From the IMG/VR virus record IMGVR_UViG_3300042389_001478, positions 32,001 through 96,000 of that record: DNA of 64,000 nucleotides, one strand, 5' to 3'. Shown in pieces: positions 30,057 through 53,279 of the stretch. The notes under the pieces are model-generated. The model worked only from the letters and a program-made list of their open reading frames with translations. It searched no databases and was not told where the DNA came from. Source of the DNA: a virus. The first letter of the stretch is position 1; each line of letters begins with the position of its first letter. Position numbers and translations under genes: made by a program.

Positions 30057-30101
30057 TAGTAGACTGATAATTAACAAAAGATACAAGGCTCGGGGAAAGA
30101 A

Positions 30102-31282: not shown

Positions 31283-31284
31283 AT

Positions 31285-31605
31285 ATGGATAATGATATGT
31301 ATAATCCAGACAGACTACAATTTTATATGAAAAGAAGAATTCAAACCACAATGATTGGCGCCTTGGCTCGCATGGAGCGTCATTTTGGATTTCTGTGGGG
31401 ACAGAACAAAGAGGGCGAATTGACTCCAGAAGAAGAAAACTTTGCTGATATCTGGGATTTTACCAGAAATGAAATTCTAAACCATGGAAATAAACAAATG
31501 AGAGAAGTGGCTGATGACTTTTATGAATATGGTGGTTTATTTAAAAACAAATACCATTACAACTTTAGAGTAGTTCAAGATAATCAAAAAAGGAAGGATA
31601 ATTAA
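31285..31605 (+). CDS. Hypothetical tail-region protein
   Basis: 106-aa ORF with RBS GAGG. Motif IQTTMIGALA..E..FGFLW. Confidence 0.55.
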   Translation: MDNDMYNPDRLQFYMKRRIQTTMIGALARMERHFGFLWGQNKEGELTPEEENFADIWDFTRNEILNHGNKQMREVADDFYEYGGLFKNKYHYNFRVVQDNQKRKDN

Positions 31606-31606
31606 T

Positions 31607-32579: not shown

Positions 32580-35500
32580 ATGGCAAAAGGATTTAATTTA
32601 ACAGCGGAAATTAATTTACGAGGACCATCTAATATTAGATCGGTTGTTGCCGATATTAAAAGACAGGTAGGGTCTGTTAGTGTTGATGTCAGTCCAACGC
32701 TCAATAGGGCTTCTGTTAGAACTATTGCTAATGATATTAGGCGTCAGATAGGAAATTTATCAGCAGAAATTAATGTAAGAGCTAATGCTGGCTCAATTAG
32801 AAACTTATCAAGAGATATTCGACAGAGACTGGGAACATTAACTGCTGATGTTCAAGTCAGAGCAGATGCCTCGTCAATTAGAAGATCTGTTGCTAATATA
32901 AGATCTCAATTTAGGAATATTAGCACCAATGTCGCAGTATCTGCATCGCCATCATCTATTAGACAAGCATCGTCAGCAATTAGGAGACAGCTTGGAAATA
33001 TTAATGCAAATGTCAGGGTTAATGTTTCCGCAGGATCAGTAAGACAAGCAGCAGCCAATATTCGTAGACAACTAGGCTCTATTAACACCACAGTTAACGT
33101 TGGAATCAATGCAGCGTCATTACGAGGCATTGGGGCATATACAGCAAATCTTACAAGATTAAATGCAACTTTAGCTCAAACTACAATTACTGCTACTAAT
33201 GCTGCCGGAGCAATTGCAACTTTAACCGCGGCTATGGGCGCTGCTGGACGAGTAAATCTTGGTCAAATCAATGTTAATCTTGGTAATGCTGGTAATGCTG
33301 CTAGAAATACTGCTAATAATATTCAGTTAGCTGGTAATGAAATTGAAAACTTCGGTCGTCAAGCGGGCTTGGCTATAAGGCGTTTTGCTGCTTTTAGTGT
33401 TGTTACGGGTGTGGTCTTTGGTATTACTAATGCTTTTAAGAATGGCGTTAGTGCTTTTATTGAATATGATCAGCAGCTTACCAGAATTAGCCAAGTTACC
33501 GGAGATGCCAAAGAAAGTCTTGGTAAAATTAATAGTACAATTAGTGAGCTCTCAACAAGCTTAGGTGTTTCATCTAAAGAATTAGCAGCAACATCAGTAA
33601 CGTTAGCTCAGGCAGGTTTAACAGCACGAGACACCGAGACTGCATTAAAGGCATTGGCCTTAAGTGCATTGGCTCCGTCTTTCGATGACATGAATCAGAC
33701 GGTAGAAGGCTCTATCGCATTAATGAGACAGTTCGGCATTTCCAGCAAAGAACTAGAAGGATCATTAGGATCAATCAACGCTGTTGCTGCAAAGTTCGCT
33801 GTCGAAGCTAGCGATATTATTACTGCCATTCAACGTACCGGTGGTGTGTTTGCTGCTGCTGGTAAAGGAGTTAGTGAAGGCACTAATGCTTTAAATGAGT
33901 TCATTGCTGTATTCACTAGTATTAGAGCAACAACTCGTGAAAGCGCAGAAACCATTGCTACTGGCTTAAGAACAATTTTTACAAGAATTCAGAGAGCCGA
34001 TACTATCGAGGCCCTCAAAGAGTTCGGCGTTACATTAACAGACTTAGAGGGTAAGTTCGTTGGACCATATATTGCTGTTCAAAGATTAAGTGAAGGATTA
34101 TCAAAACTGGATCCTAGAGATTTGAGCTTCTCTAGAATTGTGGAAGAGCTTGGTGGATTCCGACAGATTGGCAAGGTTCTACCACTTATTCAACAGTTCG
34201 CCACCGCACAAGACGCTTTGAGGGTTGCCCAGCAAGGACAAGGATCATTATCGGCCGACGCAGCCAAAGGACAAATGGCATTAGCAATTCAAATAGCAAA
34301 AGTTAGAGAAGAATTTTTAGCATTAATTAGAAGTGTTGGAAATACTGATAGTTTTCAAAATATGGTTAAGGTTGGACTAGACTTGGCCAGTGCCTTAATA
34401 AAGGTAGCAGATGCTGCTAAAGGATTAATTCCATTAGTTGGATTATTTGCGGCGTTCAGGGGAGCTCAAGCTATTACTCAATTTGCTGGTGGTTTTGGAA
34501 GAGGTTTTAGAGGAGCACCAACACAAAGAGCCTCAGAAGGTGGCCCTATTAGACACTTTGCTTCTGGAGGCTATGTTCCTGGTTTTGGTAACGGAGACAC
34601 TGTTTCTGCAAAATTAACTCCTGGCGAGTTTGTTATGAGCAAACCAGCTGTACGGTCTATTGGAGTTGGTAATCTTAGTAGAATGAATAAAGGCGATAGA
34701 GCTAGCAAATTTGATAAGGGTGGTCCAGTAACAGTATCCGCCTTATTAACTAGATCTGGAGGACCGTCAATCAGAAATGCTATTAATACTACTAATTTAG
34801 AACCAGATGATACAGTATCGATAAATATTGTTCCTAAACAAGTACCACTAAACCAGACCGACTTTTTAAATATATGGTTACGAGGTAATTCTTCTGCTAA
34901 AAAAGGAACAGGAAAATTCAAAAATTATGCTGGAATTAATGTTAGTCAAGAGAATAGAGATAGATTAAAAAATTTAGCAGGAAAAAATACAAAACAGCAA
35001 CAAGAAATTAAACGTGGTTATGGGGCCGGTATTTCTGAACAAGTGAGTATGCTACAAAGCGCGGAAGGAAGATGGGGGTTAGCATATGAAGAATTTTTGA
35101 TTAATAAACTTCGAGCTAATTGGACCAAAGCTAGTTCTAAAAACAACTACCCAGTTGATCTTGTTCAAAAACTAACAAATAATTCTATAAAGCGTATTGG
35201 AGAGGTTAAATTTCGCACGACACCTACTGAAGATATAGATCTTATTAGTAAGTTATTAAGATATCGAATAGAAAGAGGATCTATTAACAGATACTTTAGA
35301 GAAAATGAAGAAATTCCCAAAGACTTGGATAAAAATATAGGTTCGTTAGATTATTTTTGGGCTGGAAACTATAAAAAACAATTCTATAAGTTTATAGAAG
35401 AGAGACAAAAAATACAGGCTCCTGGTTTTGTTCGTGCGGCAGCTGGTGGACAAATACAAAGATTCCCTAGGGGCGGAAATGTTCAAAAACTAGCTAATGT

Positions 35501-38500
35501 TGGAGTAACCAAGGAAAAGAAACAGACTAATATAAATGAAACTGCTGCACAAGCTCTTCTCGAACAAAATGCAGGTAAATCTCCTGTTATTAGAAGAATA
35601 TTAAGTAAACCAAAAGCTGGTAGAGATTTTGCACAAATACTTAAAAAACAAGGAGTGACTATACCACCATTTCCAAAATTTGTGGGATCTGGAATGGCTA
35701 ACGCGGTTTTTGATATCGGAAATAAGAAAATGTTAAAAGTTTCTCTCACGGGCTTTGGCGATAATATGATGGCAGGAAATTTCTTTGGAGAGAATGTTGC
35801 TGAAAAAATGGGTATGACAGGTAATTATCAATTACCGATGGGTGTTCCTGGAGTAGCTGGATATTCATCTCATATTGATGCGGGAGTCTTGTCGTCTGCT
35901 ATTCAAGACAAAGCTGTTATGAAAATAAAAGGAAGAAGTAAAAATAAAGATGCTAACGAGCTAATCAAGCGATTGCGTAAACAAGAAGGACTTACAGGGA
36001 TTGATCTTCATAACGACAATATAGGATATAGATATAATCCCAAAACTAAAAAACAAGAACCAGCAATTATAGATGGTTTAGTAGTTCATGATGATAAATT
36101 ACCTCCTGGATTTGATTTTTCGAATCGTTTTAAAATTGGTGGAGAAGTACAGAGATTCCCTATTGGTGGAGAAGTTAGAAGAACCAAAAAAGAACGATAC
36201 AAAAAAATATCAGTAGCAGATGCAGAAAAGCTATCAGCTTCTCAGATTATAACCGGCCTTACTACAGGACAATCCGCTCCAGCTAGAGTAGGGGGTATGG
36301 ATGTTGTAACTATGAGAAAGATTCTCGGCCAACGCAATAGAACACCAGATGATCAACGCAAGAGAGATGAAATTCTAAATGCTTATACTAGAAGAATAAA
36401 TGGAGAAGTAGATCAACGTCTTGGAGTTACTAAGCAGAGACAAACAGCAGGATTACTATTTGGTATTGCTGGTTTGTACGGGTCTCCATTTGCCCCAACC
36501 GATATGGTTGTTGGAGATAAAGGAGAACTTACAAAACCCACAACCGTTCAGGTAATGGGTGGTGTTCCTCGTAAAAAATTAATGGATAGAGCTAATCTAA
36601 GTATTAATGACCTAGACATTTATGGTAAAGATTTTAAAAAGTCTGTTAAAAAAGGAGCTAAAAGATTATTAGTATCAGATATTCTTAGCCAACTAGGTTT
36701 AGGCAAAGCTCTTTATGCTGACTTTGATCGAACATTAGTGTTTGGTGCTGATGATCTTCCAGATATCCAGTCTTTTAATGACAAGAGAAAAGTGGGCAGG
36801 CAATTATTATCAAAAAAAGCTAGACTGAGCGTTCTTGGTCAAAAATTAAGAGATTTATTAGTAGCTAAGCCACAGCTCACACCATCTGTAAAAATATTAA
36901 CAGCAAGACCACGCTCTACACTTGGTCTTTTACAAGCTTTTCTTAGACGACAAAATCTTAATATACCTTCTTCTCAATTTACTGGGGTCGGTGGTAATAA
37001 TTTAAACGAAGCAGCAATAGCAAAATTAAAAGCTGCAGAATTACCTTCTGGATCAGTTTTAGTTGATGATAATGCAAAAAATATAAGAGCAGCAGAGCTA
37101 AAATCTAAAGCACTAAAAGCTCAAGGCGAAGCTGGTATTACAACATTTAGATATAAGAGCGCTAGGAGCCCACTAGATAAGCCGGGCGAAGATACTGCTG
37201 CTGGTCTTGCGTTCCAAGAATCATTAAGAGGACTTCTTTCAGAAAAAAGAGCAGTGGCCGCATTTGCTGAAACAGGAGGGAAGAGCATAGATTTCCCGCT
37301 AGGATTAGGAAGACGAGCAGCATTATTCGGACTAAAACCAAATATACCCACAGATGCTAAAAGAACATTAACTGGTCCATCAACAGCAAAAGAGAATATT
37401 ACTAATTATTTGAAAGCTAGATCATATTCTGCTGGCGGAGATATTCAAAAGTTTCCACAAGGAGGAACACCATCGCCGGGTGGACATTCCTCAAATATTG
37501 TACCAGCATTAGTTAGCACTGGAGAAGCTTACTTTCCACCAGAAGAAGCAAAAAATATAGGCTTAGACAAATTAAGAAAAATGAATCAAGCAGATCGTAA
37601 TGGCATGAAATCCTTTGCTCGGGGTGGTGTTAGTGTTTTCAGAGGTCCGGGATCAGGAACTAGTGATAGCATAGGACCAATAGGTTTGCCAGTAGGAAGC
37701 TTTATCGTTCGAGCAGCTGCAACAAAAGCTTTGGGTCTTAGTTCGGGTGGATCTGTTGGTAATGTACAAAAATTTGCCGCAGGAGGAGCTGCTCAAAGAT
37801 TATTTGTTGGAGGATTATTAAATCCACCACCAGCAGCTAGGCCAGATCTTGGTGGTATGAATGATTCTGAAGCTCGAAGAGTTGTTGGAGTAGTTAATAG
37901 CGTTAATCAGCAACTAGGACAATTAGCAGGAGTATTAGAAGAGCTTGGTGTTGCATCAGGAGATACTGCAAGGTTAATGCAAAGAGGAAGTCAGGCTACT
38001 TATGCTCAAGCTATTCAAGCGACAGAAGCTGATATTAGACGAGCCAGAATAGCAGGAGCATCAGCTCAACAAATAGCAGCTGCAGAAAGTGTGCTACGGG
38101 ATATTAGACAACAAGCTGATAGAGATATCAGAGCAAGAAGAGCATCTGTAGATACTCCGGGCGGAGCTAGAGCTTCCTTGGGTAGTTTAGGTGGACAAGA
38201 TTTACAGAGAATAGATTCTAGAGCCGATCAGCTACGTCAACAAATGATGGAAACAGAAAGAAATCGACTACAGAACCAAACTGTAACTCGCGGAGGAAGA
38301 ACAACAGCAAGATATTCTAATGAACAAGTCGAAGAAAGACTACAAAGACGAGCAGGAAGATTTAATAGACAATCCTACGAACAAGCAACTACTCAAGTTA
38401 CCGGCGGACGAGTCGATCTTGGTGCTGTTGGTTTAACTGGAGATGATGCTCAAAGATATATCCAACAAAGTATGAGAGACCGTAATACTTTAGCTCAGAT

Positions 38501-41500
38501 GGATAGAGCATATATACCACGACGAGCCGCACAGATTAGACAACAATTAGAAGCAGAGCGTGGTGTCGGAGCAACAGCAAGAGAAAGAGCGGCATTAGCA
38601 CGACAAGCATTACGCATGGCTGAGCAAGAGGCAAGAGACAGAGCCAATACTGCACGAGCCGCTGCCAGAGCCGCTGGAGCAGCTGGCCCCGGAGGAGGCC
38701 CAGAAAGCGGTATGGCTAGAAGCATGGGCATGGCCTTTGGTCTACAGATGGTAGGCTCCCTACTTGCACAACAGATTAATCCAGAATCTAGCTCTTCAAA
38801 TGCTCAGATATCTGCTGGTTTACAAGGTGGAACAAACATGCTGGCTACTGGCACCATGATTGGTAGTGGTGTGATGGAAATGTTCCCAGCAATGACACGA
38901 TTACTAGGTCCGATAACGATTTTAACAACAGTCGCACTAGCTGCTGGTCAAGCTTTAATTGATGCTCGAAATGCCGCCATAGAATTTGAGAAAAAATTAG
39001 CTGACAAAAGAGTTCAAGATGCAATGGAGAGAGTTGGTCAAGGCTTTGATAAACTAAGTAAAAATATCAAAGATATTAAAATTCAAGATGATATTACTAA
39101 CAATTTAATTGAAGCTAGTAGAAATGTTAGAAAATCAGTAGAAGCAGATAAAACAACAGCCAAGGCTTTTTGGGCTAATATTACTGATGTTTTTACCTCC
39201 AACACATCATCAAACTTAGCTGAGGCTGCGCAAAATGTATATAACTCCAAGCCAGCTGCTGGCAGAACAGACGCTGATAGAAATGCCTTAGCTGCTGTCA
39301 CAATAAACACCCAAGCTGCTGCAGCTAGCAGGAGCAAGATTTTAGAAAAAGAGGGGGTGTCAGCGTATCTTAGTACTACTAGCATGGGACAATTTTTAAG
39401 TGGAGCTGGCTCACAATCATCTTCTAGAGCTGAAGAAAGAAGATCATCGCTCTCTCTGGGTATGATACCGGAAACAGCCAGAGAAGACTCTAAAAAATAT
39501 GTTGAAGTCGCACAAAGTATGCAAAGAATTATTGAAGATAAATTAAGAAGTGGCTTGAGTGTTAGAGAATTATTAACAGCACCAAAACATGAATTTGAAC
39601 AAATTGCTAGAACAATGGCCATGGCAGACCAAGCCACCCATGCTAATATATTAGCAATCCAACAAGACACTAATCTAACCACAGCAGAAAAAGAAGCTAA
39701 AATCAAAAATATTGCTACGCTTTATGCTGAAGACAAGATTCGCAAATCTGCTAAGTCCGTGGACACGGAAAAAGCGAGTAAAAACTTTGAGAAGAATATT
39801 AATAATATGAGCCGTAGTTTGGAAAGAATGTTCCAAAATATGGATCAAGCTATTGAGAGAACAAGCTTTAGTTTAAGACAAATGTCTCAAGATATGGATC
39901 TCATATCAGCATCTCTTGGTGGACAAGCTAAAACTGGTGATACATCTCTTAAGTCCATGAATATTTTACAAAATCCAAGAGCATATGGTGGACTAGAAAC
40001 CAATGCTGCTAGGGATCAAGCTTCTTCCTTCTTTACTGGGGAACGTAATTTAGTTAAGGGACTATTATCAGTTGGAGATAATTTAGAAACTAGCATAATG
40101 TCTAGTATTAATAAAACTCTTACTGATAATCCAGCAGCTAGCAATGAGCAAATTGGTATCAATATTGAAAAACAAGTTACTAAACAAATTGCTAAACTAC
40201 AACTGCCTCCTGATGTTGGGAACAAACTTGGAGAACAAGTTAAGACCGCGTTGGACGAAATGAGAAAACGCGGAGATGAGAATCTAAATTTTGATGATTT
40301 AATGGAAAAAATCCCAGGATTAAGCAAGGTTCTGGAGAGCGGCAAAAGAGCACAAGAATCTGCACTTAAAGCACTAGAACATTGGCAGAGTTCACTAAAT
40401 TCGTATTCAGAAAAAATTAATCAATTAATAGATCTACAAATCGATACCAATGAAAGACTACGAAGATCAAGTGAATTGGTGATTCGTGGCAATATGGAAG
40501 TATCTCGCGCCCTTGGTAAAGATGTTAGTGTTTCATCTGTTAGATCAGCAAGAAATGTTGGCATAGCTCAACAAACTGGTGGCTTAACGGATGCTGATGC
40601 TATAGCCAAAAACATAATGTCATTAGAAGGCCAACGACGATCACTAGAATCATCGGCTAATTCTGCTGGTAATAGAGGATTAGCTGGGGCTAATGATTTT
40701 GTTAAATTTAAGAGCGGACTATTAGACACTAATGTTGCATTAAGAGAAAATATTGCAGCATTAAAATCTTTAGCAGAAAATGGCGATGTTGCTTCAGCAG
40801 CATTAGGAAAAATACAAGAAGCCCAACAGAAACAAGCTAGCAAAGTTGGATTCATTGAAAAGCTAGTAACTAGCACACCAGAAGAAGTTAATTCTTTAGA
40901 ACGTGCTATGGCTAGATTACAAAATAATATAAATGGTCAACTAAATACTATCAACAACAGTGTTGGTGCACAAAAGGCATATAATGATGCTATAGCGCAA
41001 GGAGCCACAAATGCAGAGGCCATGAGCGCAGCACAAGTTGCTTTTGCTGGCGAAAGAAAAGAAACACTAGGCGCTCTAAATGATTTATTGCCATTTTTAA
41101 GTAATAATCAACAGGGCAATAATATTAAAGCTAATGTACTAGAGAGTATGGCTAGAGAGTCTGGTGTTGGTATTAATCCAATGATGCAAGAGGTGATTAA
41201 TTCTTTAAGAAATCCACAGGCCGACCCTCAAACTCAAGCTGCTATGCAGCAATATCAACAGGCAATTAGTGAACAAGCTAGAGCTAATACTTTACTAGCA
41301 CAACTTAATAGTACTTTGGCTAATGATATTGCTACCAAATCAGCAGCAGCATTGAGCCAAGCTTTAACTGGCGCCTCGATTAAATTTCAGAGCAGTCAAT
41401 TAGACGATATTGCTAAGAATGTTAGATCTATTTCATTAAGAGGTGGTGATCAGCCAGTACCAGCAGCTGGAAAAGCCAATGGTGGCATGATTTATGCTGC

Positions 41501-44500: not shown

Positions 44501-47500
44501 TGGTCAAGACTATCTTAATGAGAACGACCCTGCTACTACTCCAAATGAAAGAGCAGAATTCTTAGCATCTAATTTCGATGGTGCTTTATATACTACAGCA
44601 ACAGAAGCCCACAGACAACTTGGCGGATTAGCAAACTTTGGAGATATTCCTAATAGAGAATGGCTTATGGCTAGAGGTCAGGCAAAGATGCCCGATATGA
44701 AACCAGTAGTTAAACTTGCTACTGGTGGTATGGTTTATGCGTCTAATGGACAGTATGTTAATTTCCAACCAAGAGGAACTGATACTGTTCCTGCAATGTT
44801 AACGCCAGGAGAGTTCGTTGTTAATCGAAGTGCTACTCAACAAAATCTTCCGCTACTAAGAGCAATTAATAATGGAGCTGATGCTTATAGTATGGGCGGT
44901 GTAGTTTACGCTGCTGGAGGATTTGATCCTTCTCGAATGGCCCAAGGAGCATATCCGTCACAAAGTACTAGTCCTAAGCCATCAATGTGGAGTAGAATGT
45001 TTGGTGCTAGAAATCCTGGAGCTTTTAGACCACGCGGTATGTTTCCAACTTTTGGTGGTGCCGTCGGACATATGGAAAATGGGCTACACAAAGCTTTTGT
45101 TAGAACATCTGGATGGGCTGGTAGGCAGGTCGGAGATGTGGGGAGAGCATTTGGTAACATTGGACATGCTCCGATCAGACCAACTGCTATCCTTAATCAA
45201 TTAACCCAATGGCAGGCTGCGCAACAAGGGGCAATGTTTCCTGCCAGCACAAGTGGTGCTGCTTACCAGAGAATGCAGCAAAATGTACTTAAACAGCTGG
45301 CACAGTACAGTTCGGCTGCAACAAATTATAATGCTAGCAATACCCTATTAGCCAGAGCAGGAAGAGGAGCAACTAGTTTAGCCACTAAGGCCGTTGGAGG
45401 TACAGCAGCTTTCAACTCTGGAATTAATATATTGACTGAAGGATCAAGCGCTCTATATGGTTTTGGTAATGCTGCTTTAGGAGGACGTAATACATATGTA
45501 GATAGTAGACGAGAACAAGCTGCTCAAACCAATAATACTATTTTAGGAGGAGCAGCTACAGGATTTATGTCTCCAATTACCACTATGGCCCAGATGGGTT
45601 TTACTGTTGCTGAACTTAATGAAACTAGGAGAAGAGCTAGTAAAGGAGAAAGTTTAAATAGTGAAGGACGAAAGATATCTGTATCAAACATTGCTAATAG
45701 ACAATATTCTGGAGATGAAAGACATTTATCTGGATTAACAGCAGTAGAAGCTACTTATATTAGACAGATCATAAATTTAGAAAAAGCTTTAGCCAAAGAA
45801 AAAGTTGGGACTAAACGGTACGACCAGCTACAACAAAATTTAAATGATGCAAAATCTAGAAATGTTACAGAAAAAACTCGTGGTATGCTATGGGGTACCA
45901 CAAAAACTACTAGCAGAAAGGCCGGTCTTAGTAGTGGTGACGACGTATTAGACAAAGCTATTGATCAACATAGAGAATATGAGGTTAGATTAGAAGCACA
46001 AAGAGTTGCTCAGGCAGCTGCAGAAAAAGCAGAAGAAGCTAGACTAAAAGCTCAACAACAACAAGCTGAAGCTCAAAATAGAACAAGAGCTGCTGTTACG
46101 GTAGTGTCTAATGCTGGACAAGCAGCTTATAATTTTGGGGTCTCTATGTTTAATAAATTCAAAGAAGATAGAAAGAATGCTATAAATGCTGATAGATCTA
46201 AGAGAACAGCAGCAGCATCTCAGTATTTAGATAAGCCCGCAGTGCCAGATCTAATTAAAGATAGTCAAACTTTCAGAGACGAAAGACAAGCTGCTATCGA
46301 TGAAGTTCGTCGTTTGGATGGGGTTTATCAACAAGAGTCACAGCTAAATAAAAATAGAGGAGATAGCGAAGCAGAACTTAAACGATTAAAGGATTCATAC
46401 GACAAAGAACGAGAAGCCGCACTAGCAGCTGTTGCTAAAGTTGATAGTAAAATTATTGACAGAAATAAAGAAGCAGAAAAACTCAGCCCAGACGAAAGAC
46501 AAGCAGCATGGAAGTCATACAATGATAATCAAGCTAAAACAGCCAAAGATGAAGCATTAGCTCAAGCAAGATACCAAAGTAGAGTTGCTAAAACACAACT
46601 TAAAAAACAGGCCGACGGTCAATTGGCCATAGCAGAAATTACTAGAGTACCCAGACCAACAAAAGATATGAACCCTGAATCATTCTTTAGATGGTCAGAA
46701 AATGCTCGTAAGACATTAAATAGAAAATTCAAGCTGAGCGGAAATGATGAAAAAGACATGGCTATTTTAAGTGCTGCTGGATTATCTCCAGAAATAGCTA
46801 AAGAAGTTATCCAGCCTATCTCTAAAGAGAATAGCTCACTATTATTAGAAATGATGTCAACTAGCGGTAAATATAGTAAACAAGAACTAGGACTATTACA
46901 GCTTAGTGGAGATCAAATAGAACAGTTAACTAGAGCTAGCTCTGGTATGGGTGGCTCAGCCACCGCACAAATGACACTAGACGAAAGAAACAAAGTTCTG
47001 AAAAAACAAAGGGGCTTGGCAGTTAAAACTCAAAAGCAATTGAGTAGAATTGAAAAACAAATTGAGGCTGCTGAAAGACTTGGCCCAGAAGGAAGAATAC
47101 GTCGTCAATCCGCTATTCAACAACAACTATTAAGACAAGGATTAGTATCAGCATCTCAAGATGGTCCTGCTAATCAAGCTAGACTAGAACAATTAGGAAT
47201 GAATAAGGAAAGAGTTGGTTTCATATTCCAACAGCAAGGAAATCAACAAGGTGCTCCAGCAAATGGTATGAGTAACGGAGGAGTGGTTTATGCTGCTGGC
47301 GGAACATTGATTCCATATTCTCCAAGAGGAACCGACACTGTTCCTGCTATGCTAACGCCCGGAGAATTTGTTGTTAATGCTAAGGCCACAAGTCAAAATC
47401 TTCCATTGTTACAAAGTATTAATAAAAGTAGTGGAGGGGTAATTTATCGAGCGGAGGGTGGCGGAAGTGACGCTTTCTCTAACAGACAGCCGACCTCATC

Positions 47501-50500
47501 TGCAGAAAAATCAGGATCGATTAGAGCAACAGAATTAAATACTAGACTACAACAACAAATAGCTAATAATACAAAAAATACAGCCGATACTGTTCCAACT
47601 ATAGCAAAAATTACTAGTGAAACAGCAAATAAGCAAATACCGACATTATCTAATAAAACATCATCATTAGAACAAAATAATGCTAAGGCTTTTTCCAACA
47701 TAAATACAAAAGCTACAGATATTAATAAAATAACTTCAACTATTCCACAATTTGACAAAACAGCAAATGAAAAATTAGATGAATTATTAAGAAGAACTGA
47801 AGGGTTGCCAGAGACAGTTGCACAAATTGTTACTTTGATTATTGGGGATATACAACAGAGACAGCCTGGAGGTAATTTTGCAGGATTTGGGTTGAATCAA
47901 GGCCCTAATGCAATACAAGCAATAAATGATGCTATTAGAAATAGGTTTGATAATATTCTTAATGCTGCCGCTTTACAGATGGGCAGGGGCTTTAGTAGTG
48001 GAGGTATGGTCTATGCTTCAAATGGAATGATGATTCCTTATGAACCTAGAGGTACTGATACTGTTCCGGCGATGCTAACTCCGGGTGAGTTTGTGGTGAA
48101 CAGAGTTGCTACCCAAGCCAATTTACCTTTATTACAAGCTATTAATAAGAGTAAAGGTGGGAATATCAAAAAGCTTGCTGAGGGTGGAGTAGTTTATGCT
48201 GCTACTGGCGGAACAATGCCAACTAAACCAGACGGTTCTGCTGATACTAATTTTGATGCTCGCAAAGCTCAACGAAAAGCATCTTTAGAGAGACAGATTC
48301 GAACACAGGAAGAAAAAGAATTTAAGAAATTAGGTATCTTATACAATGATACCACAGACAAAGAAGATATCATACAAGCTCTTAAAAAACAAACTCAGCC
48401 TTATCCTTATCCTTTAAATATTGATTATTATCTAAGACAATTTAGTAGGGATAAAGCATTTGACATAGACCTAAAAAGATTTCCAAGAATTAGCGAAGCG
48501 GCAAAATCAATCTTAGCCAAACAAGAACAACCAAAAGCTAATCCTTTTGATATGGGTCAGCAACCAGCAGCAACTCCACAATCACTCTCAAGAGGTGGAG
48601 TAGTTTATGCTTCTGGTGGCGGAGAGATGACAAAAATTCCAGAGCCACCAATAGCTATGCCATTCGGATTTGCTCCACAAAAGGGATTTGCTGTTCCTTT
48701 GGATAAAACTAAGGCCATACAAGCACATCAACAATCAGAAAAATACCCTGATCCTTTTACTCCAGAAGCTGATAGGGCCTGGAGACAATTTGACTTGAGT
48801 CCAGTAGAAAGTATGGCGGATGATGCTCATGAATTTTTACAAGAAAAATTAGGAGGAAACAAACAAATTCCCCTTAATGGTCCACCCATGCCATTTGGTG
48901 TCGGTCCTAGAGCTAGGCATATGGATAACACTGTTGCTGGACAACTTCAAGGATTGTATTATTCGTTAATACCTGATAATACCAAAGGTGGTCAGGGTTT
49001 AGAAAATTATTTAGACCAATATAAAAATCATTTTGCTCCAAACGCACCATATGGGGCTCAGCCGATCTTACCAAATAAAGATTCGTTGATGCCTCAAATG
49101 AAAGCTAAGGGTGGAGTAGTTTATGCTCAAGAAGGATTTGATCCATCAAGACCATTAAATCCTATGATGAATCGTCAAGGAAAGGGTTCAGCTTCCACAT
49201 TAACCTCATCTCCAATTAGTAATTTTAATAATGAGAAGTTAGCTGAAGAAGGTAAAGCTTTTATGTACGGAGCTGCTAAGTCCGTACTTCCAGGTTTAGC
49301 TGGTTTGGGTGCTGGACTTTTAGGACTACCCACCACGGGTCCTGGTGGATTTGCTATTGGCTTAGGAGCAGGGACCGCAGTATATCAAGCTCAAGAAAAT
49401 TATTTGAATGCTTTTGCTCCAGAAACAAATAGACAGATGAAAGATATCACCGAGGAGCACTGGCAGGCTTCATTATTGGGATCTATAGCTAGTGGTTTTG
49501 GTGTTGATAAGGCGGGTCGTAAGCTACTCTCTCCTTTTATGAAAAATACTCTCAGAATGCCCGCCACACTTCCTAATAATAATGCTTCTGTAAGACCAGA
49601 TATTAAGAGTGCTAGTCAAGAAGCTATGGAGGAATTTTCTTTAAGAAGTAGACCAGCAGCTAGCGCCCCATTAGATGTACCAAAAGCTGATAAAGCTTTA
49701 CCGCTTCTTCGTAGTCTAGAAGAAAAGGGTGTTATAAAAACTACTCAATCATCATCAACATCTAAATTTAACAGTGATAACAGACGAGACCTATATCAGA
49801 TTGATCAAATTTTATATCACGGCACAGGACATACTATAGATGATATAGATCCATCCAAAGGCGGAGGTATATTAGGCGGTGGTTTCTATACTGGATTTGA
49901 AGGTCACGAAGGAATCGCTGCAAGATTTGCAGCAATGGGTAAAGCAAATAAGCATGTGTATCCAGTAAGAGTCAGTGGTGGTATAGGTGATTTTCCTGAG
50001 GCTACAGAAACTCTTGGCGGTAACTCTAAAATTTTATCAGTCATAGAAAAATTATTTACTGAACAGAACTTATCTAGACAAACTCGTCAGTTCTCAGGCA
50101 AATGGGGGAAAACAGGTCCTATTTATGACAACGTAGATTTAAATCTGAAAGACATGACATTCAAAGACGTTGTTGATTTGCTTAAGAATAGATATTCTGA
50201 AACCATAAAGAAAACTCTAGAGCAAGAAAATGGTATTTCTTTATCAAAAATATCGCCTCAAGAAATTGCTACAAGAGCAGATAAATTAGGTGAAGAACAG
50301 GTAAGACAACTATTGGTTAAAGCTGGTATACCAGGAGCCAAAGATACAACAGGAAAATTATCGGGTACTGGCGAACCTATGGTCTCCATATATGATCAAA
50401 GCAGGCTAAGCAAAGAAGGAAAACCTTTTGTTCCAAATAGTTTGAAACCCCAGATGAAAGCCAATGGTGGTGTAATTTATGCTCAAGATGGTATGAGAAT

Positions 50501-53279
50501 CCCGTTTAATTTAAATGATATTGCTGATAAAAATCCAGCAAAAGTGGGATACTCAACATCAGCAGAAGAACGATATATGGAAAGATGGAAGAAAACACAT
50601 ACCGACTTACTAGCAGACCCGTCAGAAGGTCCTGGTATGTTGGGTGCTCCGTTTCATGAAAGATTTTCAGCTGGCTTAAATATGCTTGCTGATATTGGTT
50701 CAGCAAAAATGGCTGGAGCAAAAGCTACAGGAGCAAGAGGTCAAAAATTTGCTAGTGTGCCAAGATCAGGCAGATCCATGAGGAAACCACCGACCTCTAT
50801 AGTGAAACCAAGTGCTCCTTCTGTAGGAGATCTTAAAGCTCTGCAATATAGTCAAGAAAATATACCAAATTTATTAGGAGATGGAGAGAGACCATTATTT
50901 AGTAAAGATTTTCCAAAAACCGTTAAACCAAAAGATATTGAAGCAAAATTAGCCCAAGATAGAACTGAAATAGAAAGTATAGCAAAATTACTCTCTGAAA
51001 GACTAGGAAGACCGGTTGATCCAGTGGAAGCTAAGGATATGTTAGTTAAAAGAATGACTGATATGATGATTGAAGCTAAGTCTGGCGAAGATAATATGAA
51101 AGGTAGAACTGTTGATAGTAAAACATTTATAATATCTTCTTCACAAGGAAGAACTAATCGAGCTTTTGTAGAAGCGTCTCCTAAAGCATCATTATTACGC
51201 AAAATAGCCTCAAAACTATCTTTTGGTAAAATAGATAGATTATCTCCAAAACAACAATTAGATAGAGACGAACTATTTGCCATACAACGAATACAGAGTT
51301 ATATGTATGATCAGTTACATCCTGAAAGAATGGGTGGTTTAATTATTCCTTCTCGTAAACTATCTTTTGCTGAAGCTTATGATGAAATAGATTCATTACA
51401 ACCAGGAAAATATGGTTATTTCAAAGGGCTAACTGAACCCGGAGGCAAAGCATTAAAAAATCTTCTATCCAGCGGAAGAATAGATAAAGAAACATTGATG
51501 ACTCAACGTAAACAAGTATCAGATAAGTTAATATCTGAAGGTAAATTAGATCCACAAGATCTACCAGAAGCAAGAATGGCGGAAGACCCCACAAAATCTC
51601 AAATGATAATGCAGAGAGTAAACAGAAATTCTGATATGATAATTAGATATCAAGGAAATGATGTCAGATTAAATCCAGATATTTTAAAATTAGCAGATAA
51701 AGGTGTCTACCAGTCACCCGTAACCACAAATGATCCACAACAACAAATATACCCTACATCTCCATTAGATTTTTATCAGAAATTTATGGCTCCACAGAAT
51801 AAATCATCTGGTGGTGTAATTTATGCTTCAACAGGAACATTAGTAAATTATCAGCCTCGTGGCACCGACACAGTACCCGCAATGCTTACGCCCGGTGAGT
51901 TTGTTGTAAACAGAGCCTCTACTCAAAAACACCTTCCACTATTACAATCTATTAATAGTGGGAACTATGAAAATGGCGGAATAGTATCATACTATCGAAG
52001 AGGTGGTCGTATTACTGCAGCAGAACTAGCATCAAATAGAAGAGAATATTTAGATCGCAAAAAAGCAGAGAAAAAGCAAAGAGATGATGATAAAAAAGCT
52101 AGAGAAGATAATTTTGCAGCAGCACGACAACAACAGATTGAAGACCGTAGAGCTAGATCTACAAGTGGCATCTCTGTGCAAACCAGGGGCGGGTCCTATG
52201 CTCGATCTGCAATGAGTTCTAGTCAAGCACAACCAAACCAACCACAACAAACAGCACAGAGCACCATAGCACAAGCTATTATCAATGTGGCTCAAGCAGC
52301 TATAAATATTGCAAATGCTACTACTAGTTCTAGCTCCTCTAATAATAATCAAACCGGCACTCCGTCTTATATGACTAGTAGTATTAATGGACCAAGAACT
52401 CAACGAACTCAGGATTTCTTTGAAGCTAGAAGAATAAATAGAAACAGCAGAGAACAAGAAGAGAATGACAGAACATTATATAGAAGAAGAAATCGCAGGC
52501 CATCAGACACAACAGCTTATAGTAATGCTTTAGCTAGTAGAAATACTCCCGTGGCTGCTAATAATCAAAATTCCCCAGCACAAAATAGCATATTCGGTAA
52601 CTTGCTACAAGCCATACAAAGCATGTTTGGATCGGCCCAAACAGCAACGAGAGGTGCACAGAATCAACAAACTGGAACACCAAGATATCTAACAAGCTCT
52701 ATCAATACTCCCGGCGTTCAGCGAACACAAGAATTCTTTGAGATGAGAAGAATTAACCAAGAAGCTCAACAGGCTGAAAGAGACAGAAGAAATCAAAGAG
52801 CTGCAGTGGCACAAGCGGCCAATAGTCCAAATGTTCCATCTGGCCAAAATCCAGCACAAAATAATAACATATGGACAGTATTAAATAATAATGCTCTCCA
52901 ATTTAGTAATGCTTTAAATACAGCTACCACCGCTTTAAACACAGCCTCCGCCGCGATACAGCAATATAATCAACAATTGGCTGGTGGTGTATCTAATAAA
53001 GGAAACCCTGATAAAACCAATCTTGATGGAATTAGCCTATTTACAAGCACATTCCAATCATTTATTGATCAATTGAAAAATATTAATCCGGTAATAAATA
53101 TGAGAGGAAATCATACAGTAACAGTAAATTTCGGTTCTGGTGCAGATGTTTTTGCAAGAATGGAAGGAAGAGTTAAGGAGTTTGTTATTGATCAAATTAA
53201 TGCCGGATTAAATAATGTAAATACTACACTAAGAGATAGCACCGAAGGCTCTATTGATAATGTTCGAAATTTAGCTTAA
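32580..53279 (+). CDS. 6,899-aa tape measure protein carrying multiple enzymatic cargo domains (polyvalent TMP)
   Basis: TP901/PhageMin_Tail-like core (FIEYDQQLTRISQVTG...TRESAETIATGLRTIFTRI, about 33450-34300). Second long helical region with hydrophobic segments. Repeated GTDTVPAMLTPGEFVVN motifs. Canonical position after the tube and chaperone genes. RBS GAGGA. Confidence 0.92.
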   Translation: MAKGFNLTAEINLRGPSNIRSVVADIKRQVGSVSVDVSPTLNRASVRTIANDIRRQIGNLSAEINVRANAGSIRNLSRDIRQRLGTLTADVQVRADASSIRRSVANIRSQFRNISTNVAVSASPSSIRQASSAIRRQLGNINANVRVNVSAGSVRQAAANIRRQLGSINTTVNVGINAASLRGIGAYTANLTRLNATLAQTTITATNAAGAIATLTAAMGAAGRVNLGQINVNLGNAGNAARNTANNIQLAGNEIENFGRQAGLAIRRFAAFSVVTGVVFGITNAFKNGVSAFIEYDQQLTRISQVTGDAKESLGKINSTISELSTSLGVSSKELAATSVTLAQAGLTARDTETALKALALSALAPSFDDMNQTVEGSIALMRQFGISSKELEGSLGSINAVAAKFAVEASDIITAIQRTGGVFAAAGKGVSEGTNALNEFIAVFTSIRATTRESAETIATGLRTIFTRIQRADTIEALKEFGVTLTDLEGKFVGPYIAVQRLSEGLSKLDPRDLSFSRIVEELGGFRQIGKVLPLIQQFATAQDALRVAQQGQGSLSADAAKGQMALAIQIAKVREEFLALIRSVGNTDSFQNMVKVGLDLASALIKVADAAKGLIPLVGLFAAFRGAQAITQFAGGFGRGFRGAPTQRASEGGPIRHFASGGYVPGFGNGDTVSAKLTPGEFVMSKPAVRSIGVGNLSRMNKGDRASKFDKGGPVTVSALLTRSGGPSIRNAINTTNLEPDDTVSINIVPKQVPLNQTDFLNIWLRGNSSAKKGTGKFKNYAGINVSQENRDRLKNLAGKNTKQQQEIKRGYGAGISEQVSMLQSAEGRWGLAYEEFLINKLRANWTKASSKNNYPVDLVQKLTNNSIKRIGEVKFRTTPTEDIDLISKLLRYRIERGSINRYFRENEEIPKDLDKNIGSLDYFWAGNYKKQFYKFIEERQKIQAPGFVRAAAGGQIQRFPRGGNVQKLANVGVTKEKKQTNINETAAQALLEQNAGKSPVIRRILSKPKAGRDFAQILKKQGVTIPPFPKFVGSGMANAVFDIGNKKMLKVSLTGFGDNMMAGNFFGENVAEKMGMTGNYQLPMGVPGVAGYSSHIDAGVLSSAIQDKAVMKIKGRSKNKDANELIKRLRKQEGLTGIDLHNDNIGYRYNPKTKKQEPAIIDGLVVHDDKLPPGFDFSNRFKIGGEVQRFPIGGEVRRTKKERYKKISVADAEKLSASQIITGLTTGQSAPARVGGMDVVTMRKILGQRNRTPDDQRKRDEILNAYTRRINGEVDQRLGVTKQRQTAGLLFGIAGLYGSPFAPTDMVVGDKGELTKPTTVQVMGGVPRKKLMDRANLSINDLDIYGKDFKKSVKKGAKRLLVSDILSQLGLGKALYADFDRTLVFGADDLPDIQSFNDKRKVGRQLLSKKARLSVLGQKLRDLLVAKPQLTPSVKILTARPRSTLGLLQAFLRRQNLNIPSSQFTGVGGNNLNEAAIAKLKAAELPSGSVLVDDNAKNIRAAELKSKALKAQGEAGITTFRYKSARSPLDKPGEDTAAGLAFQESLRGLLSEKRAVAAFAETGGKSIDFPLGLGRRAALFGLKPNIPTDAKRTLTGPSTAKENITNYLKARSYSAGGDIQKFPQGGTPSPGGHSSNIVPALVSTGEAYFPPEEAKNIGLDKLRKMNQADRNGMKSFARGGVSVFRGPGSGTSDSIGPIGLPVGSFIVRAAATKALGLSSGGSVGNVQKFAAGGAAQRLFVGGLLNPPPAARPDLGGMNDSEARRVVGVVNSVNQQLGQLAGVLEELGVASGDTARLMQRGSQATYAQAIQATEADIRRARIAGASAQQIAAAESVLRDIRQQADRDIRARRASVDTPGGARASLGSLGGQDLQRIDSRADQLRQQMMETERNRLQNQTVTRGGRTTARYSNEQVEERLQRRAGRFNRQSYEQATTQVTGGRVDLGAVGLTGDDAQRYIQQSMRDRNTLAQMDRAYIPRRAAQIRQQLEAERGVGATARERAALARQALRMAEQEARDRANTARAAARAAGAAGPGGGPESGMARSMGMAFGLQMVGSLLAQQINPESSSSNAQISAGLQGGTNMLATGTMIGSGVMEMFPAMTRLLGPITILTTVALAAGQALIDARNAAIEFEKKLADKRVQDAMERVGQGFDKLSKNIKDIKIQDDITNNLIEASRNVRKSVEADKTTAKAFWANITDVFTSNTSSNLAEAAQNVYNSKPAAGRTDADRNALAAVTINTQAAAASRSKILEKEGVSAYLSTTSMGQFLSGAGSQSSSRAEERRSSLSLGMIPETAREDSKKYVEVAQSMQRIIEDKLRSGLSVRELLTAPKHEFEQIARTMAMADQATHANILAIQQDTNLTTAEKEAKIKNIATLYAEDKIRKSAKSVDTEKASKNFEKNINNMSRSLERMFQNMDQAIERTSFSLRQMSQDMDLISASLGGQAKTGDTSLKSMNILQNPRAYGGLETNAARDQASSFFTGERNLVKGLLSVGDNLETSIMSSINKTLTDNPAASNEQIGINIEKQVTKQIAKLQLPPDVGNKLGEQVKTALDEMRKRGDENLNFDDLMEKIPGLSKVLESGKRAQESALKALEHWQSSLNSYSEKINQLIDLQIDTNERLRRSSELVIRGNMEVSRALGKDVSVSSVRSARNVGIAQQTGGLTDADAIAKNIMSLEGQRRSLESSANSAGNRGLAGANDFVKFKSGLLDTNVALRENIAALKSLAENGDVASAALGKIQEAQQKQASKVGFIEKLVTSTPEEVNSLERAMARLQNNINGQLNTINNSVGAQKAYNDAIAQGATNAEAMSAAQVAFAGERKETLGALNDLLPFLSNNQQGNNIKANVLESMARESGVGINPMMQEVINSLRNPQADPQTQAAMQQYQQAISEQARANTLLAQLNSTLANDIATKSAAALSQALTGASIKFQSSQLDDIAKNVRSISLRGGDQPVPAAGKANGGMIYAAAGTMVNFQPKGTDTVPAMLTPGEFVVNRAATSRNLPLLQSINSGGYSKGGSVNYYSSGGYVSSVFKSEYLDSKNLENSEKQYIDPEDKIIKDIISGDDKPFMIRSGWKNFTRLQSPANQYHSAQFKKTYVGRVGGYFGFGLDETNDKIPFETSGKLVPGSAPIIDINSIDGEYVYKNTPPPNLWPAGNRELGYLLSDRKFNTKNIAKNDLSKYRDIINGLISVVPPGRVWGTDPSSFEFSSPDDLSGGQSGFPYNPNLSSAKPVGLILSRGATDIGQQATESTDGIQKIFNNSRAFTGQSEEASDRAGNTTRIYGDIQGTVSAGKLTNAAKLAQRGFINDVPTDNDTFKWITETKKISELRDTQKENLSLLKNTTTDIFGNKINWLKNTEKNNKLISLQQKLQKIYEGGSLIEDLDVSERELIDNTQLRLDDASGKFSLLSKQLEPQLAKRVAELSSRPIDQQLPKDKENARIATLTRIGGAAGWADGDPFPINFSENGLTKPTVSFPWIANIEPEFFLQNIKEQQEQQAKDRASGKDYGFNISSLGLQPYAAKLPAPLDKVSFNYKAAYTKYSGRLFDLRQKELDNTRPLNDAFIIDPKHDDALNIFKNANFPDKSFFTGFPGPYQPQDLAKRISVKDPQSILDYMQALRNNDPNADALAGKINGVSLALGPALLKVMNDKPLYLPDDLYYGIDNTFQNLDISPFVVASAKDAAGQLGRLAKEKSSQINTPGSKTQSISEADLGPTVQRIAQASLGIFGRRPGIPSGYLYSQFGRALSNISDPIKAKNTASGISGVFSNLVKQIHGMAPRNSREFAALRDSNILATGASAVFNKLASGSTNYIKSFLGGGSSIENLFRSLGSGSFFNEMGSQQFSEDFTKQLGADLKGSKLAKIGADGSIDLTDMNEQDVPKNYQGLVDLAINPYHEFGNRSVRQGIFQKLMTDIPNFRANHNVTDPKTGTILEKRQTQLPLFGPAALKMIMTNLNNLSQWYGGNGAWAGQDYLNENDPATTPNERAEFLASNFDGALYTTATEAHRQLGGLANFGDIPNREWLMARGQAKMPDMKPVVKLATGGMVYASNGQYVNFQPRGTDTVPAMLTPGEFVVNRSATQQNLPLLRAINNGADAYSMGGVVYAAGGFDPSRMAQGAYPSQSTSPKPSMWSRMFGARNPGAFRPRGMFPTFGGAVGHMENGLHKAFVRTSGWAGRQVGDVGRAFGNIGHAPIRPTAILNQLTQWQAAQQGAMFPASTSGAAYQRMQQNVLKQLAQYSSAATNYNASNTLLARAGRGATSLATKAVGGTAAFNSGINILTEGSSALYGFGNAALGGRNTYVDSRREQAAQTNNTILGGAATGFMSPITTMAQMGFTVAELNETRRRASKGESLNSEGRKISVSNIANRQYSGDERHLSGLTAVEATYIRQIINLEKALAKEKVGTKRYDQLQQNLNDAKSRNVTEKTRGMLWGTTKTTSRKAGLSSGDDVLDKAIDQHREYEVRLEAQRVAQAAAEKAEEARLKAQQQQAEAQNRTRAAVTVVSNAGQAAYNFGVSMFNKFKEDRKNAINADRSKRTAAASQYLDKPAVPDLIKDSQTFRDERQAAIDEVRRLDGVYQQESQLNKNRGDSEAELKRLKDSYDKEREAALAAVAKVDSKIIDRNKEAEKLSPDERQAAWKSYNDNQAKTAKDEALAQARYQSRVAKTQLKKQADGQLAIAEITRVPRPTKDMNPESFFRWSENARKTLNRKFKLSGNDEKDMAILSAAGLSPEIAKEVIQPISKENSSLLLEMMSTSGKYSKQELGLLQLSGDQIEQLTRASSGMGGSATAQMTLDERNKVLKKQRGLAVKTQKQLSRIEKQIEAAERLGPEGRIRRQSAIQQQLLRQGLVSASQDGPANQARLEQLGMNKERVGFIFQQQGNQQGAPANGMSNGGVVYAAGGTLIPYSPRGTDTVPAMLTPGEFVVNAKATSQNLPLLQSINKSSGGVIYRAEGGGSDAFSNRQPTSSAEKSGSIRATELNTRLQQQIANNTKNTADTVPTIAKITSETANKQIPTLSNKTSSLEQNNAKAFSNINTKATDINKITSTIPQFDKTANEKLDELLRRTEGLPETVAQIVTLIIGDIQQRQPGGNFAGFGLNQGPNAIQAINDAIRNRFDNILNAAALQMGRGFSSGGMVYASNGMMIPYEPRGTDTVPAMLTPGEFVVNRVATQANLPLLQAINKSKGGNIKKLAEGGVVYAATGGTMPTKPDGSADTNFDARKAQRKASLERQIRTQEEKEFKKLGILYNDTTDKEDIIQALKKQTQPYPYPLNIDYYLRQFSRDKAFDIDLKRFPRISEAAKSILAKQEQPKANPFDMGQQPAATPQSLSRGGVVYASGGGEMTKIPEPPIAMPFGFAPQKGFAVPLDKTKAIQAHQQSEKYPDPFTPEADRAWRQFDLSPVESMADDAHEFLQEKLGGNKQIPLNGPPMPFGVGPRARHMDNTVAGQLQGLYYSLIPDNTKGGQGLENYLDQYKNHFAPNAPYGAQPILPNKDSLMPQMKAKGGVVYAQEGFDPSRPLNPMMNRQGKGSASTLTSSPISNFNNEKLAEEGKAFMYGAAKSVLPGLAGLGAGLLGLPTTGPGGFAIGLGAGTAVYQAQENYLNAFAPETNRQMKDITEEHWQASLLGSIASGFGVDKAGRKLLSPFMKNTLRMPATLPNNNASVRPDIKSASQEAMEEFSLRSRPAASAPLDVPKADKALPLLRSLEEKGVIKTTQSSSTSKFNSDNRRDLYQIDQILYHGTGHTIDDIDPSKGGGILGGGFYTGFEGHEGIAARFAAMGKANKHVYPVRVSGGIGDFPEATETLGGNSKILSVIEKLFTEQNLSRQTRQFSGKWGKTGPIYDNVDLNLKDMTFKDVVDLLKNRYSETIKKTLEQENGISLSKISPQEIATRADKLGEEQVRQLLVKAGIPGAKDTTGKLSGTGEPMVSIYDQSRLSKEGKPFVPNSLKPQMKANGGVIYAQDGMRIPFNLNDIADKNPAKVGYSTSAEERYMERWKKTHTDLLADPSEGPGMLGAPFHERFSAGLNMLADIGSAKMAGAKATGARGQKFASVPRSGRSMRKPPTSIVKPSAPSVGDLKALQYSQENIPNLLGDGERPLFSKDFPKTVKPKDIEAKLAQDRTEIESIAKLLSERLGRPVDPVEAKDMLVKRMTDMMIEAKSGEDNMKGRTVDSKTFIISSSQGRTNRAFVEASPKASLLRKIASKLSFGKIDRLSPKQQLDRDELFAIQRIQSYMYDQLHPERMGGLIIPSRKLSFAEAYDEIDSLQPGKYGYFKGLTEPGGKALKNLLSSGRIDKETLMTQRKQVSDKLISEGKLDPQDLPEARMAEDPTKSQMIMQRVNRNSDMIIRYQGNDVRLNPDILKLADKGVYQSPVTTNDPQQQIYPTSPLDFYQKFMAPQNKSSGGVIYASTGTLVNYQPRGTDTVPAMLTPGEFVVNRASTQKHLPLLQSINSGNYENGGIVSYYRRGGRITAAELASNRREYLDRKKAEKKQRDDDKKAREDNFAAARQQQIEDRRARSTSGISVQTRGGSYARSAMSSSQAQPNQPQQTAQSTIAQAIINVAQAAINIANATTSSSSSNNNQTGTPSYMTSSINGPRTQRTQDFFEARRINRNSREQEENDRTLYRRRNRRPSDTTAYSNALASRNTPVAANNQNSPAQNSIFGNLLQAIQSMFGSAQTATRGAQNQQTGTPRYLTSSINTPGVQRTQEFFEMRRINQEAQQAERDRRNQRAAVAQAANSPNVPSGQNPAQNNNIWTVLNNNALQFSNALNTATTALNTASAAIQQYNQQLAGGVSNKGNPDKTNLDGISLFTSTFQSFIDQLKNINPVINMRGNHTVTVNFGSGADVFARMEGRVKEFVIDQINAGLNNVNTTLRDSTEGSIDNVRNLA
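32637..33122 (+). repeat. Six 27-aa (81-nt) tandem repeats at the TMP N-terminus
   Basis: Consensus RxxxxxIRRQLGxIxxxVxVxxxxxS(I/V/L), repeated six times in exact register. Confidence 0.9.
35040..35420 (+). other. PD-(D/E)xK nuclease-like domain 1 within the TMP
   Basis: GLAYEEFL (E837)...YPVDL (D860)...IGEVKF (E875, K877). Confidence 0.6.
35670..36110 (+). other. Protein-kinase-like domain within the TMP
   Basis: VGSGMANAVF (Gly loop, G1036), MLKV (K1053), IQDKA hinge, DLHNDNIG (D1142, N1147), IIDG (D1165). Confidence 0.75.
36705..37110 (+). other. HAD-superfamily phosphatase domain within the TMP
   Basis: Motif I LYADFDRTL (D1381, D1383), motif II KILTAR (T1441), motif III Lys (AKLK), motif IV VLVDDN (D1496). 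Confidence 0.8.
37190..37425 (+). other. PD-(D/E)xK nuclease-like domain 2 within the TMP
   Basis: GLAFQESL (E1547)...SIDFP (D1571)...PTDAKRT (D1592, K1594). Confidence 0.55.
41532..51911 (+). repeat. Five exact protein-level copies of GTDTVPAMLTPGEFVVN within an extended ~55-aa repeat
   Basis: Copies start at 41532, 44775, 47328, 48051 and 51861. Each is preceded by GGxxYAxxG and followed by xxATxxNLPLLxxIN (variants in some copies). Degenerate copies at about 34560-34650, 37480-37535 and 37610-37715. Confidence 0.95.
49800..50400 (+). other. ADP-ribosyltransferase-like domain within the TMP
   Basis: LYHGT (H5747), LGGGFY (Y5770), IAARFA, HVYPVRV, then LLVKAGIPG...GEPMVSIYD (E5932). Confidence 0.7.

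Follow-up and report, generated by a model that had tools for sequence, protein, structure and literature searches.

The window analyzed here, a 64,000-nucleotide stretch of DNA, belongs to a 192,497-bp virus genome found in lake and freshwater metagenomes. An uninterrupted ORF at positions 32580..53279 on the plus strand encodes a protein of 6,899 aa that contains no cysteine, and its ATG is preceded by a GAGGA ribosome site. A public protein collection places the start of this gene at window position 33234, 218 codons later, which yields a protein of 6,681 aa without the conserved N-terminal repeats. The first ATG is favored over this later start because of the ribosome site and the conservation of the N-terminus in orthologs. 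The protein matches PF10145 at aa 320–512 (E 1e-24; 87.8 bits, cut-off 33.2) and TIGR01760 at aa 281–586 (E 1.5e-26; 93.2 bits, cut-off 28.8), and this TP901-type core match is the sole one in the genome. The protein is a TP901-type tape measure protein (TMP), present as a single copy in a tail gene module. The preliminary description had recognized a TMP core in a chain of this length, and both the profile matches and the intact ORF bear this out. The features of the locus are listed in Table 1.

The genes directly upstream, judged by position and character, are probably those for the tail tube and two tail chaperones; no family match was found for them. The two probable chaperone genes (343 and 294 aa, window 30251–32491), which flank a 106-aa ORF, lie directly before the TMP gene. 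Tail fibre and baseplate-like genes are also located upstream of the TMP gene, and a 4,221-aa ORF at window 6103–18768 has a C-terminal match only, to a tail fibre connector family. Large tail genes of 1,450, 529, and 1,858 aa without a PHROG match occupy window 53296–64000. The 1,450-aa gene follows the TMP gene in close relatives and is not recognizable in most distant ones. No match to the PF04984 sheath was found in the genome, and the tail is therefore likely to be non-contractile. The virus has no close cultured relative; the nearest cultured match to the core is YomI, at 23–25% identity. Three GTDB matches are MAG contigs with unrelated labels and provide no host assignment, and no RNA dataset is present among the listed holders of the sequence.

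Table 1. Features of the tape measure locus in the window
Feature	Position	Strand	Remarks
Upstream tail tube gene and two tail chaperone genes (probable)	28974..32491	+	By position and character
N-terminal basic repeats, aa 1–250	32580..33329	+	Five I-R-R-Q-type units; region of 66–251 aa among orthologs
TP901-type TMP core, aa 251–650	33330..34529	+	PF10145, TIGR01760
L1	34530..34730	+	Long type
Cassette 1, PD-(D/E)xK-like, aa 718–952	34731..35435	+	E837/D860/E875/K877
L2	35436..35483	+	Double short motif
Cassette 2, minimal protein-kinase-like, aa 969–1183	35484..36128	+	Without C-terminal subdomain
L3	36129..36176	+	Double short motif; left edge of block shared with L004
Cassette 3a, folded alpha/beta domain, aa 1200–1372	36177..36695	+	pLDDT mostly 75–96; dN/dS 0.28
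Cassette 3b, HAD phosphatase, aa 1373–1530	36696..37169	+	T4 Pnkp 3'-phosphatase-like
Cassette 3c, small PD-(D/E)xK-like, aa 1531–1615	37170..37424	+	D1571/D1592/K1594; dN/dS 0.10
L4	37425..37796	+	Two degenerate copies of the long linker; variable zone 1 ends here
Ala/Gln-rich conserved helical body, aa 1740–2964	37797..41471	+	Second half of frame; parts match 19–53 loci
L5	41472..41684	+	Long
Module of 1,010 aa, no assigned fold	41685..44714	+	Kept in closer relatives, 17–26% identity
L6	44715..44915	+	Long
Optional 780-aa helical module	44916..47267	+	Not in P0007
L7–L10 and three small optional modules	47268..49130	+	172, 130, and 162 aa
Module with Gly-rich apolar stretch	49131..49739	+	78% identical in three relatives without the following ART
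Probable ADP-ribosyltransferase, ART-PolyVal type, aa 5721–5959	49740..50456	+	Atlas 0.93, 189/256 features
L11 and 440-aa cassette	50457..51800	+	84% to P0007 linker to linker
L12	51801..52013	+	Long; homologous to TMP motif at lambda gpH 732–786
Low-complexity stretch and conserved C-terminal strand-helix end	52014..53279	+

The conserved frame and the repeated linker peptide

The chain comprises a conserved frame of ~2,000 aa (N-terminal core, helical body, and C-terminal strand-helix end), 12 linker blocks, and exchangeable inserts. Variable zone 1 extends over aa 651–1739 and zone 3 over aa 4046–6478, and the 1,010-aa module is placed between the helical body and zone 3. The five N-terminal repeats (window 32580–33329) have a 27-aa spacing and a net charge of +22, and their number differs from ortholog to ortholog; on the head-proximal side, they may contact the genome end. 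The C-terminal strand-helix end is a probable tail-tip anchor.

The short linker motif, (F/Y/L)-A-x-G-G-x-V/I, occurs at 613 sites in 59 non-redundant orthologs versus 2 in shuffles. Its di-glycine is kept at fixed spacing in the short linkers (0.97 each) at cassette borders. The long linker adds a D-T-V-P-A-x-L-T-P-G-E-F-V core and a helix, and the 12 blocks of the query contain eight long copies, two of which are degenerate. The 19-aa linker core is identical in four query copies, while third codon positions in the linkers agree at only 44% within genomes and 46% between them, indicating that selection acts on the linker peptide. Maintenance of the linker as a DNA repeat by gene conversion was rejected because third-position identity is no higher within genomes than between them. 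A genome-wide signal of virion proteins was likewise rejected, since the long profile matches the TMP only and matches of the short motif elsewhere are mostly Cys-driven artefacts. A profile search of the PDB with the linker found no solved relative. An AlphaFold model of the long linker has a weak strand-helix-helix form (pLDDT about 60).

As a TMP motif, the long linker is widespread: 389 phage records, mostly TMPs, contain it, and mycobacteriophage TMPs also carry the linker motif. The profile built from the present orthologs aligns to residues 732–786 of lambda gpH (24.6 bits). Lambda gpH loses a ~14-kDa C-terminal piece from a glycine-rich region, and neither the cut site nor the protease has been identified (PMC12617516). 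By calculation, a 13.9-kDa piece of gpH would begin at residue 720, twelve residues before the motif. The link between the linker motif and gpH cleavage is positional only.

The inserts share one compositional feature with the frame. Only 13 cysteines occur in 212,401 aa of the orthologs, four of them in the 96,414 aa outside the frame, compared with 1.36% cysteine in the other proteins of the genome and none in lambda gpH. Since the inserts show the same scarcity as the ruler, they presumably pass along the tube and across the envelope in unfolded form.

Cassettes and their predicted enzymes

None of the enzyme modules of the query has its own match in Pfam, PHROG, or NCBIfam, and the assignments therefore required orthologs and folding. 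Matches of query inserts to GapR, PilN, XhlA, and CsgA were discarded as noise. Cassettes 1 and 3, the small nuclease, the ART, and the 1,010-aa module had no match in PDB profile searches, and word-index searches missed the kinase and ART homologs. A single-sequence AlphaFold model of aa 641–1740 was useless (pLDDT 35). The recognized enzymes amount to ~930 aa, or 13.5% of the chain, and no function has been assigned to about half of the chain.

Cassette 1 is a probable PD-(D/E)xK nuclease at the level of motifs: the E, D, and E are invariant, and the K is present in seven of eight orthologs. Cassette 2 is assigned with good support as a protein-kinase-like domain on the basis of its conserved residues and profile matches. 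Its motifs are G1036-x-G1038/K1053/D1142/N1147/D1165, of which K, D, N, and D are invariant in seven homologs, as is Q1109, the Gln of the last N-lobe strand. The module ends 18 aa past D1165, and a Glu before strand 2, present in five of seven homologs, is Ala in the query. The nine best rows of the PDB search are all kinase folds (E 0.026–1.5). Atlas gives 0.94 to the Kinase-PolyVal and T7 kinase clusters, and the query has no PF18760 or PF18762 match. In the 761-aa model, the N-lobe is predicted at pLDDT 75–88 and the C-lobe at about 25–67; all fold-search rows for this model were taken by the HAD domain and are silent on the other domains.

The HAD phosphatase of cassette 3b is a firm assignment. 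The Rossmannoid fold is present, and the motifs D1381/D1383/T1441/K1484/D1496-D1497 (DxDxT, T, K, and DD) correspond to motifs I–IV; motifs I, III, and IV are invariant and motif II is at least 90% conserved among 17 orthologs. Cassette 3c is probably a second PD-(D/E)xK nuclease at motif level, with the D invariant in 37 rows and D/E-x-K in most, although some copies have no lysine. The two nuclease profiles align on their motifs, and the hhalign probability (4%) is too low to support homology between them. The HAD and second nuclease form a single 416-aa cassette. The dN/dS in cassette 3 is 0.10–0.28, and the catalytic residues of the HAD and kinase are kept.

The ART domain is a probable ADP-ribosyltransferase of the ART-PolyVal type. 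Its His of strand 1 (H5747) and Tyr of strand 2 (Y5770) are both kept in the relative L019, and E5932, a tentative candidate for the acidic residue of strand 5, is also shared with L019. The L019 homolog, which is 36% identical, matches PF18760 with an E of 1.1e-4, below the cut-off. All five motifs named in the preliminary description (PD-(D/E)xK, kinase, HAD, a second PD-(D/E)xK, and ART) are present in the order given there. The identities drawn from them are graded: firm for the HAD, good for the kinase, probable for the ART, and at motif level only for the two nucleases. The format of modules separated by GG linkers was also confirmed as repeat-delimited, except that no linker lies between the HAD and the second nuclease or on the N-terminal side of the ART.

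Exchange of cassettes among relatives

The TMP core is encoded at 80 IMG/VR loci (80/80) with 54–87% identity. Complete orthologs range from 1,958 to 7,794 aa and keep the N- and C-termini; with increasing length of zone 1, the helical body begins at later positions, between aa 797 and 2958. Zone 1 has 56 cassette orders in 57 orthologs, a count based on coarse labels in which singletons are distinct and some loci are truncated. Of 228 ends of high-identity DNA blocks, 64% have a linker no more than 20 aa away, versus 13.5% at random, a statistic that is inflated because the pairs are not independent and the linkers themselves are conserved. Individual pairs locate the exchanged segments. With L004, the DNA of aa 1199–1625 shares 85% identity from one linker to the next, and no flanking block reaches 75%. 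L002 is ~80% identical to the query over aa 1–698 and 1634–2200 and differs between these regions. P0008 and P0009 are 91% identical over aa 1–704 and 72–77% over 1614–5220, without the kinase, and P0007 is 84% identical over aa 5955–6478 and lacks aa 4110–4900. The kinase and ART also change zone: L004 has the same kinase in its zone 3, and L019 has the same ART in its zone 1. These comparisons show that TMP cassettes are exchanged between phages by recombination at the repeated peptide linker. Cassettes are gained, lost, and reordered at the linkers, and the fixed collinear content that would have contradicted the preliminary description is excluded.

The relatives extend the enzyme repertoire to a VIP2-type ART (six members, best E 5e-10) and SNase and, by motif, to HExxH, P-loop, HIGH, and GNAT modules. 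The HExxH protease is present in 13 of 59 relatives and not in the query. PD-(D/E)xK-like cassettes are the commonest type, one of them occurring in 41 loci. In L001, L002, L004, and L015 (e.g., L084:3730-6552 and L085:207-3044), an EF-hand module replaces the optional 780-aa module of the query (best E 2e-9); calcium-binding motifs inside a TMP were unexpected. A recurrent cassette in L012:11381-14632 and related loci (a cluster of 17) has a P-loop and, in some members, a HIGH-type nucleotidyltransferase; it may act together with the HAD in NAD salvage or nucleic-acid end repair. A 4,808-aa ortholog (L089:5683-6855) carries two kinase cassettes in tandem with a double short linker between them. 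The gene in L090:1-4255 stops in zone 1 and was called as three genes, representing either an assembly error or a decaying allele.

A proposed role of the tape measure as a carrier of effectors

TMPs fill the tail lumen, set the tail length, and leave before the DNA. We propose that the protein is a working TMP that doubles as a polyvalent effector array, being packed unfolded, ejected, and possibly resolved into cassettes by cuts at the linkers; we give this reading an even chance of being correct. The whole chain would run, unfolded, along the lumen of a non-contractile tail of ~1.0–1.1 µm. Zone 1 separates the two halves of the frame, and it is therefore simplest to assume that the entire chain serves as the ruler for a tail of this length. 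As expected for a TMP, the chain would leave the tail before the DNA; once in the host, the cassettes would fold again and act within the first minutes, ahead of phage gene expression. Judging from the domain set, the kinase and ART may modify host proteins, the HAD may heal nucleic-acid 3' ends or remove nucleotide phosphates, and the PD-(D/E)xK domains may cut nucleic acid. In the least certain step, the linkers would be the signal at which a protease separates the enzymes. It would act in trans because the query protein has no zincin of its own. By motif, two subtilisin-like, one trypsin-like, and one possible cysteine protease are encoded outside the window (G000:C1 7620-9227, 144673-145596, 161067-162751) as candidates. 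Another ORF outside the window (G000:C1 163077-164078, 333 aa) has an actin-like phosphate-1 motif at its start. Only two hydrophobic segments, both marginal (aa 264 and 2109), were found in the chain, which, as regards a path into the cytoplasm, counts against the proposed reading.

Several other explanations have to be weighed. Linkers that are 70–78% alike in DNA could have caused several genomes to be joined at repeats during assembly, and the whole gene is spanned by no single public contig. Such a chimera is largely refuted, and we give it almost no weight. All 30 bins of the gene are evenly covered, almost without differences, by contigs from four lake-water runs, which also bridge L6, L7, and L8 (run-contig joints with short sides were treated as other organisms), and this even cover and bridging indicate that the gene is not chimeric. 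In addition, independent relatives are collinear over 3,700 aa at 72–77%, and the same architecture occurs on many separate contigs. It is very improbable that the cassettes are tolerated or selfish passengers without a host-directed role, namely length filler or nuclease-driven mobile inserts that cut rival alleles in co-infection. The prevalence of PD-(D/E)xK-like cassettes, the nuclease copies without lysine, the many low-complexity inserts, and the gene broken by stops in L090 would agree with such passengers. However, the HAD and kinase are under purifying selection and keep their active sites, and the set of ART, kinase, GNAT, zincin, and nucleotidyltransferase mirrors the conflict effectors of polyvalent proteins (PMC5512222) and not homing elements.

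The remaining alternatives accept the enzymes as functional and concern the fate of the chain. The frame alone could be the ruler of a 300–500 nm tail, with the cassettes cut or looped out in assembly and packaged elsewhere or acting late in the producing cell. The shortest complete ortholog indicates that ~2,000 aa suffice, and if the whole chain were ruler, the fourfold range of TMP lengths would translate into tails of 0.3–1.2 µm. We regard this as improbable nonetheless: the ruler would be divided if zone 1 were removed before assembly, the closed tube of the tail leaves no way for a folded domain to loop out, and the cassettes share the cysteine ban of the TMP, which fits a life in the lumen. 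Tails of this scale do exist, that of P74-26, a relative of Thermus phage P23-45, being nearly 1 µm (PMC10034513). A stronger competitor, though still somewhat unlikely, is delivery without cutting, in which the chain stays whole, the enzymes refold tethered to the membrane channel, and the linkers are chaperone-binding, folding, or spacer elements as well as recombination joints. In P23-45, the 5,002-aa TMP gp96, to which an RNA polymerase is fused, keeps its full size in virions (PMC10770324). Consistent with this, the query has no protease in cis, the modelled long linker has some form of its own, and the linker motif is common in TMPs as a single copy, with no cleavage shown for the 389 phage records. 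On the other hand, a di-glycine at fixed spacing at cassette borders exceeds the needs of a spacer, the one characterized homolog adjoins a processed region, and the targets of the kinase, ART, and nucleases would be spread in the cytoplasm.

Extending the proposal of linker cutting, we tentatively suggest that the peptide near the cut of lambda gpH is a general TMP processing signal, an idea we hold to be possible but more probably wrong than right. The present family would have multiplied this signal to carry a dozen released, recombinable enzymes, with tails of 0.3–1.2 µm growing with the payload. If this is true, the 7,794-aa relative would have a tail longer than any described. The family offers a catalogue of candidate enzymes for host takeover or anti-defence before phage gene expression, and its natural series of 1,958–7,794 aa bears on the question of whether enzyme domains contribute to the ruler. 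For the 50-year-old question of the cut site and signal of gpH (PMC12617516), the family singles out a particular conserved peptide.

Comparison with known systems places the protein between enzyme-fused tape measures and injected polyvalent proteins. Like gp96 of P23-45 and its counterparts in P74-26, G20c, and TSP4, it combines in one chain a giant TMP with enzymes that would act in the cytoplasm and, by prediction, belongs to a phage with an extremely long tail; an enzyme-bearing ruler on the micron scale thus has a precedent. The suggestion of the preliminary description that part of the chain may be cargo rather than ruler is not required in the light of these phages (PMC10770324, PMC10034513). 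In contrast to the single fixed N-terminal RNA polymerase and metallopeptidase of gp96, the cassettes here are many, small, internal, linker-fenced, and shuffled, and an RNA polymerase was not detected in the query TMP. Muralytic or protease-bearing TMPs (T5 pb2, TM4 gp17 (PMC1796659), and SPbeta YomI) also have enzymes inside the TMP, but theirs are one or two cell-wall enzymes for entry and not an exchangeable array acting on proteins and nucleic acids. Lambda gpH shares the linker motif and the absence of cysteine, is cut near the motif, and is ejected as a channel (PMC12617516). Unlike the present protein, it is 853 aa long with one motif copy and no known enzyme activity.

Polyvalent proteins similarly carry disparate conflict enzymes in one chain encoded among virion genes, and processing was proposed for them (PMC5512222). 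The query has at least two disparate domains (HAD, kinase, and ART) and is encoded among late/virion genes. Its kinase resembles Kinase-PolyVal in having no C-terminal subdomain and a conserved Gln, a probable ART-PolyVal-like domain is present, and the relatives have GNAT and zincin motifs (PMC5512222). By the features tested, the protein is a TMP that would work like a polyvalent protein, and its domains suggest membership of described PolyVal families. However, the carriers in that study are MuF, portal, virion RNA polymerase, or T4SS substrates and not TMPs; the words "tape" and "linker" are absent from it, as are a TMP scaffold and a repeated joint (PMC5512222). Two later surveys likewise draw no connection to tape measures or linkers.

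Our literature searches, in which subscription journals were thinly covered, found no paper on this architecture or motif. Polymorphic, MuF, and MARTX toxins exchange cassettes at conserved joints, and MARTX toxins release several effectors from one chain. The likeness is an analogy, as the cassettes here are internal and multiple. Polymorphic toxins are characterized by C-terminal variation and an immunity gene, whereas here the variation is internal, the C-terminus is conserved, the next gene encodes the conserved 1,450-aa protein, and no immunity or orphan cassette genes directly follow the TMP ORF. Enzyme-fused tape measures and injected polyvalent proteins are known; new, as far as the papers searched show, is the TMP as a modular carrier with a standard joint.
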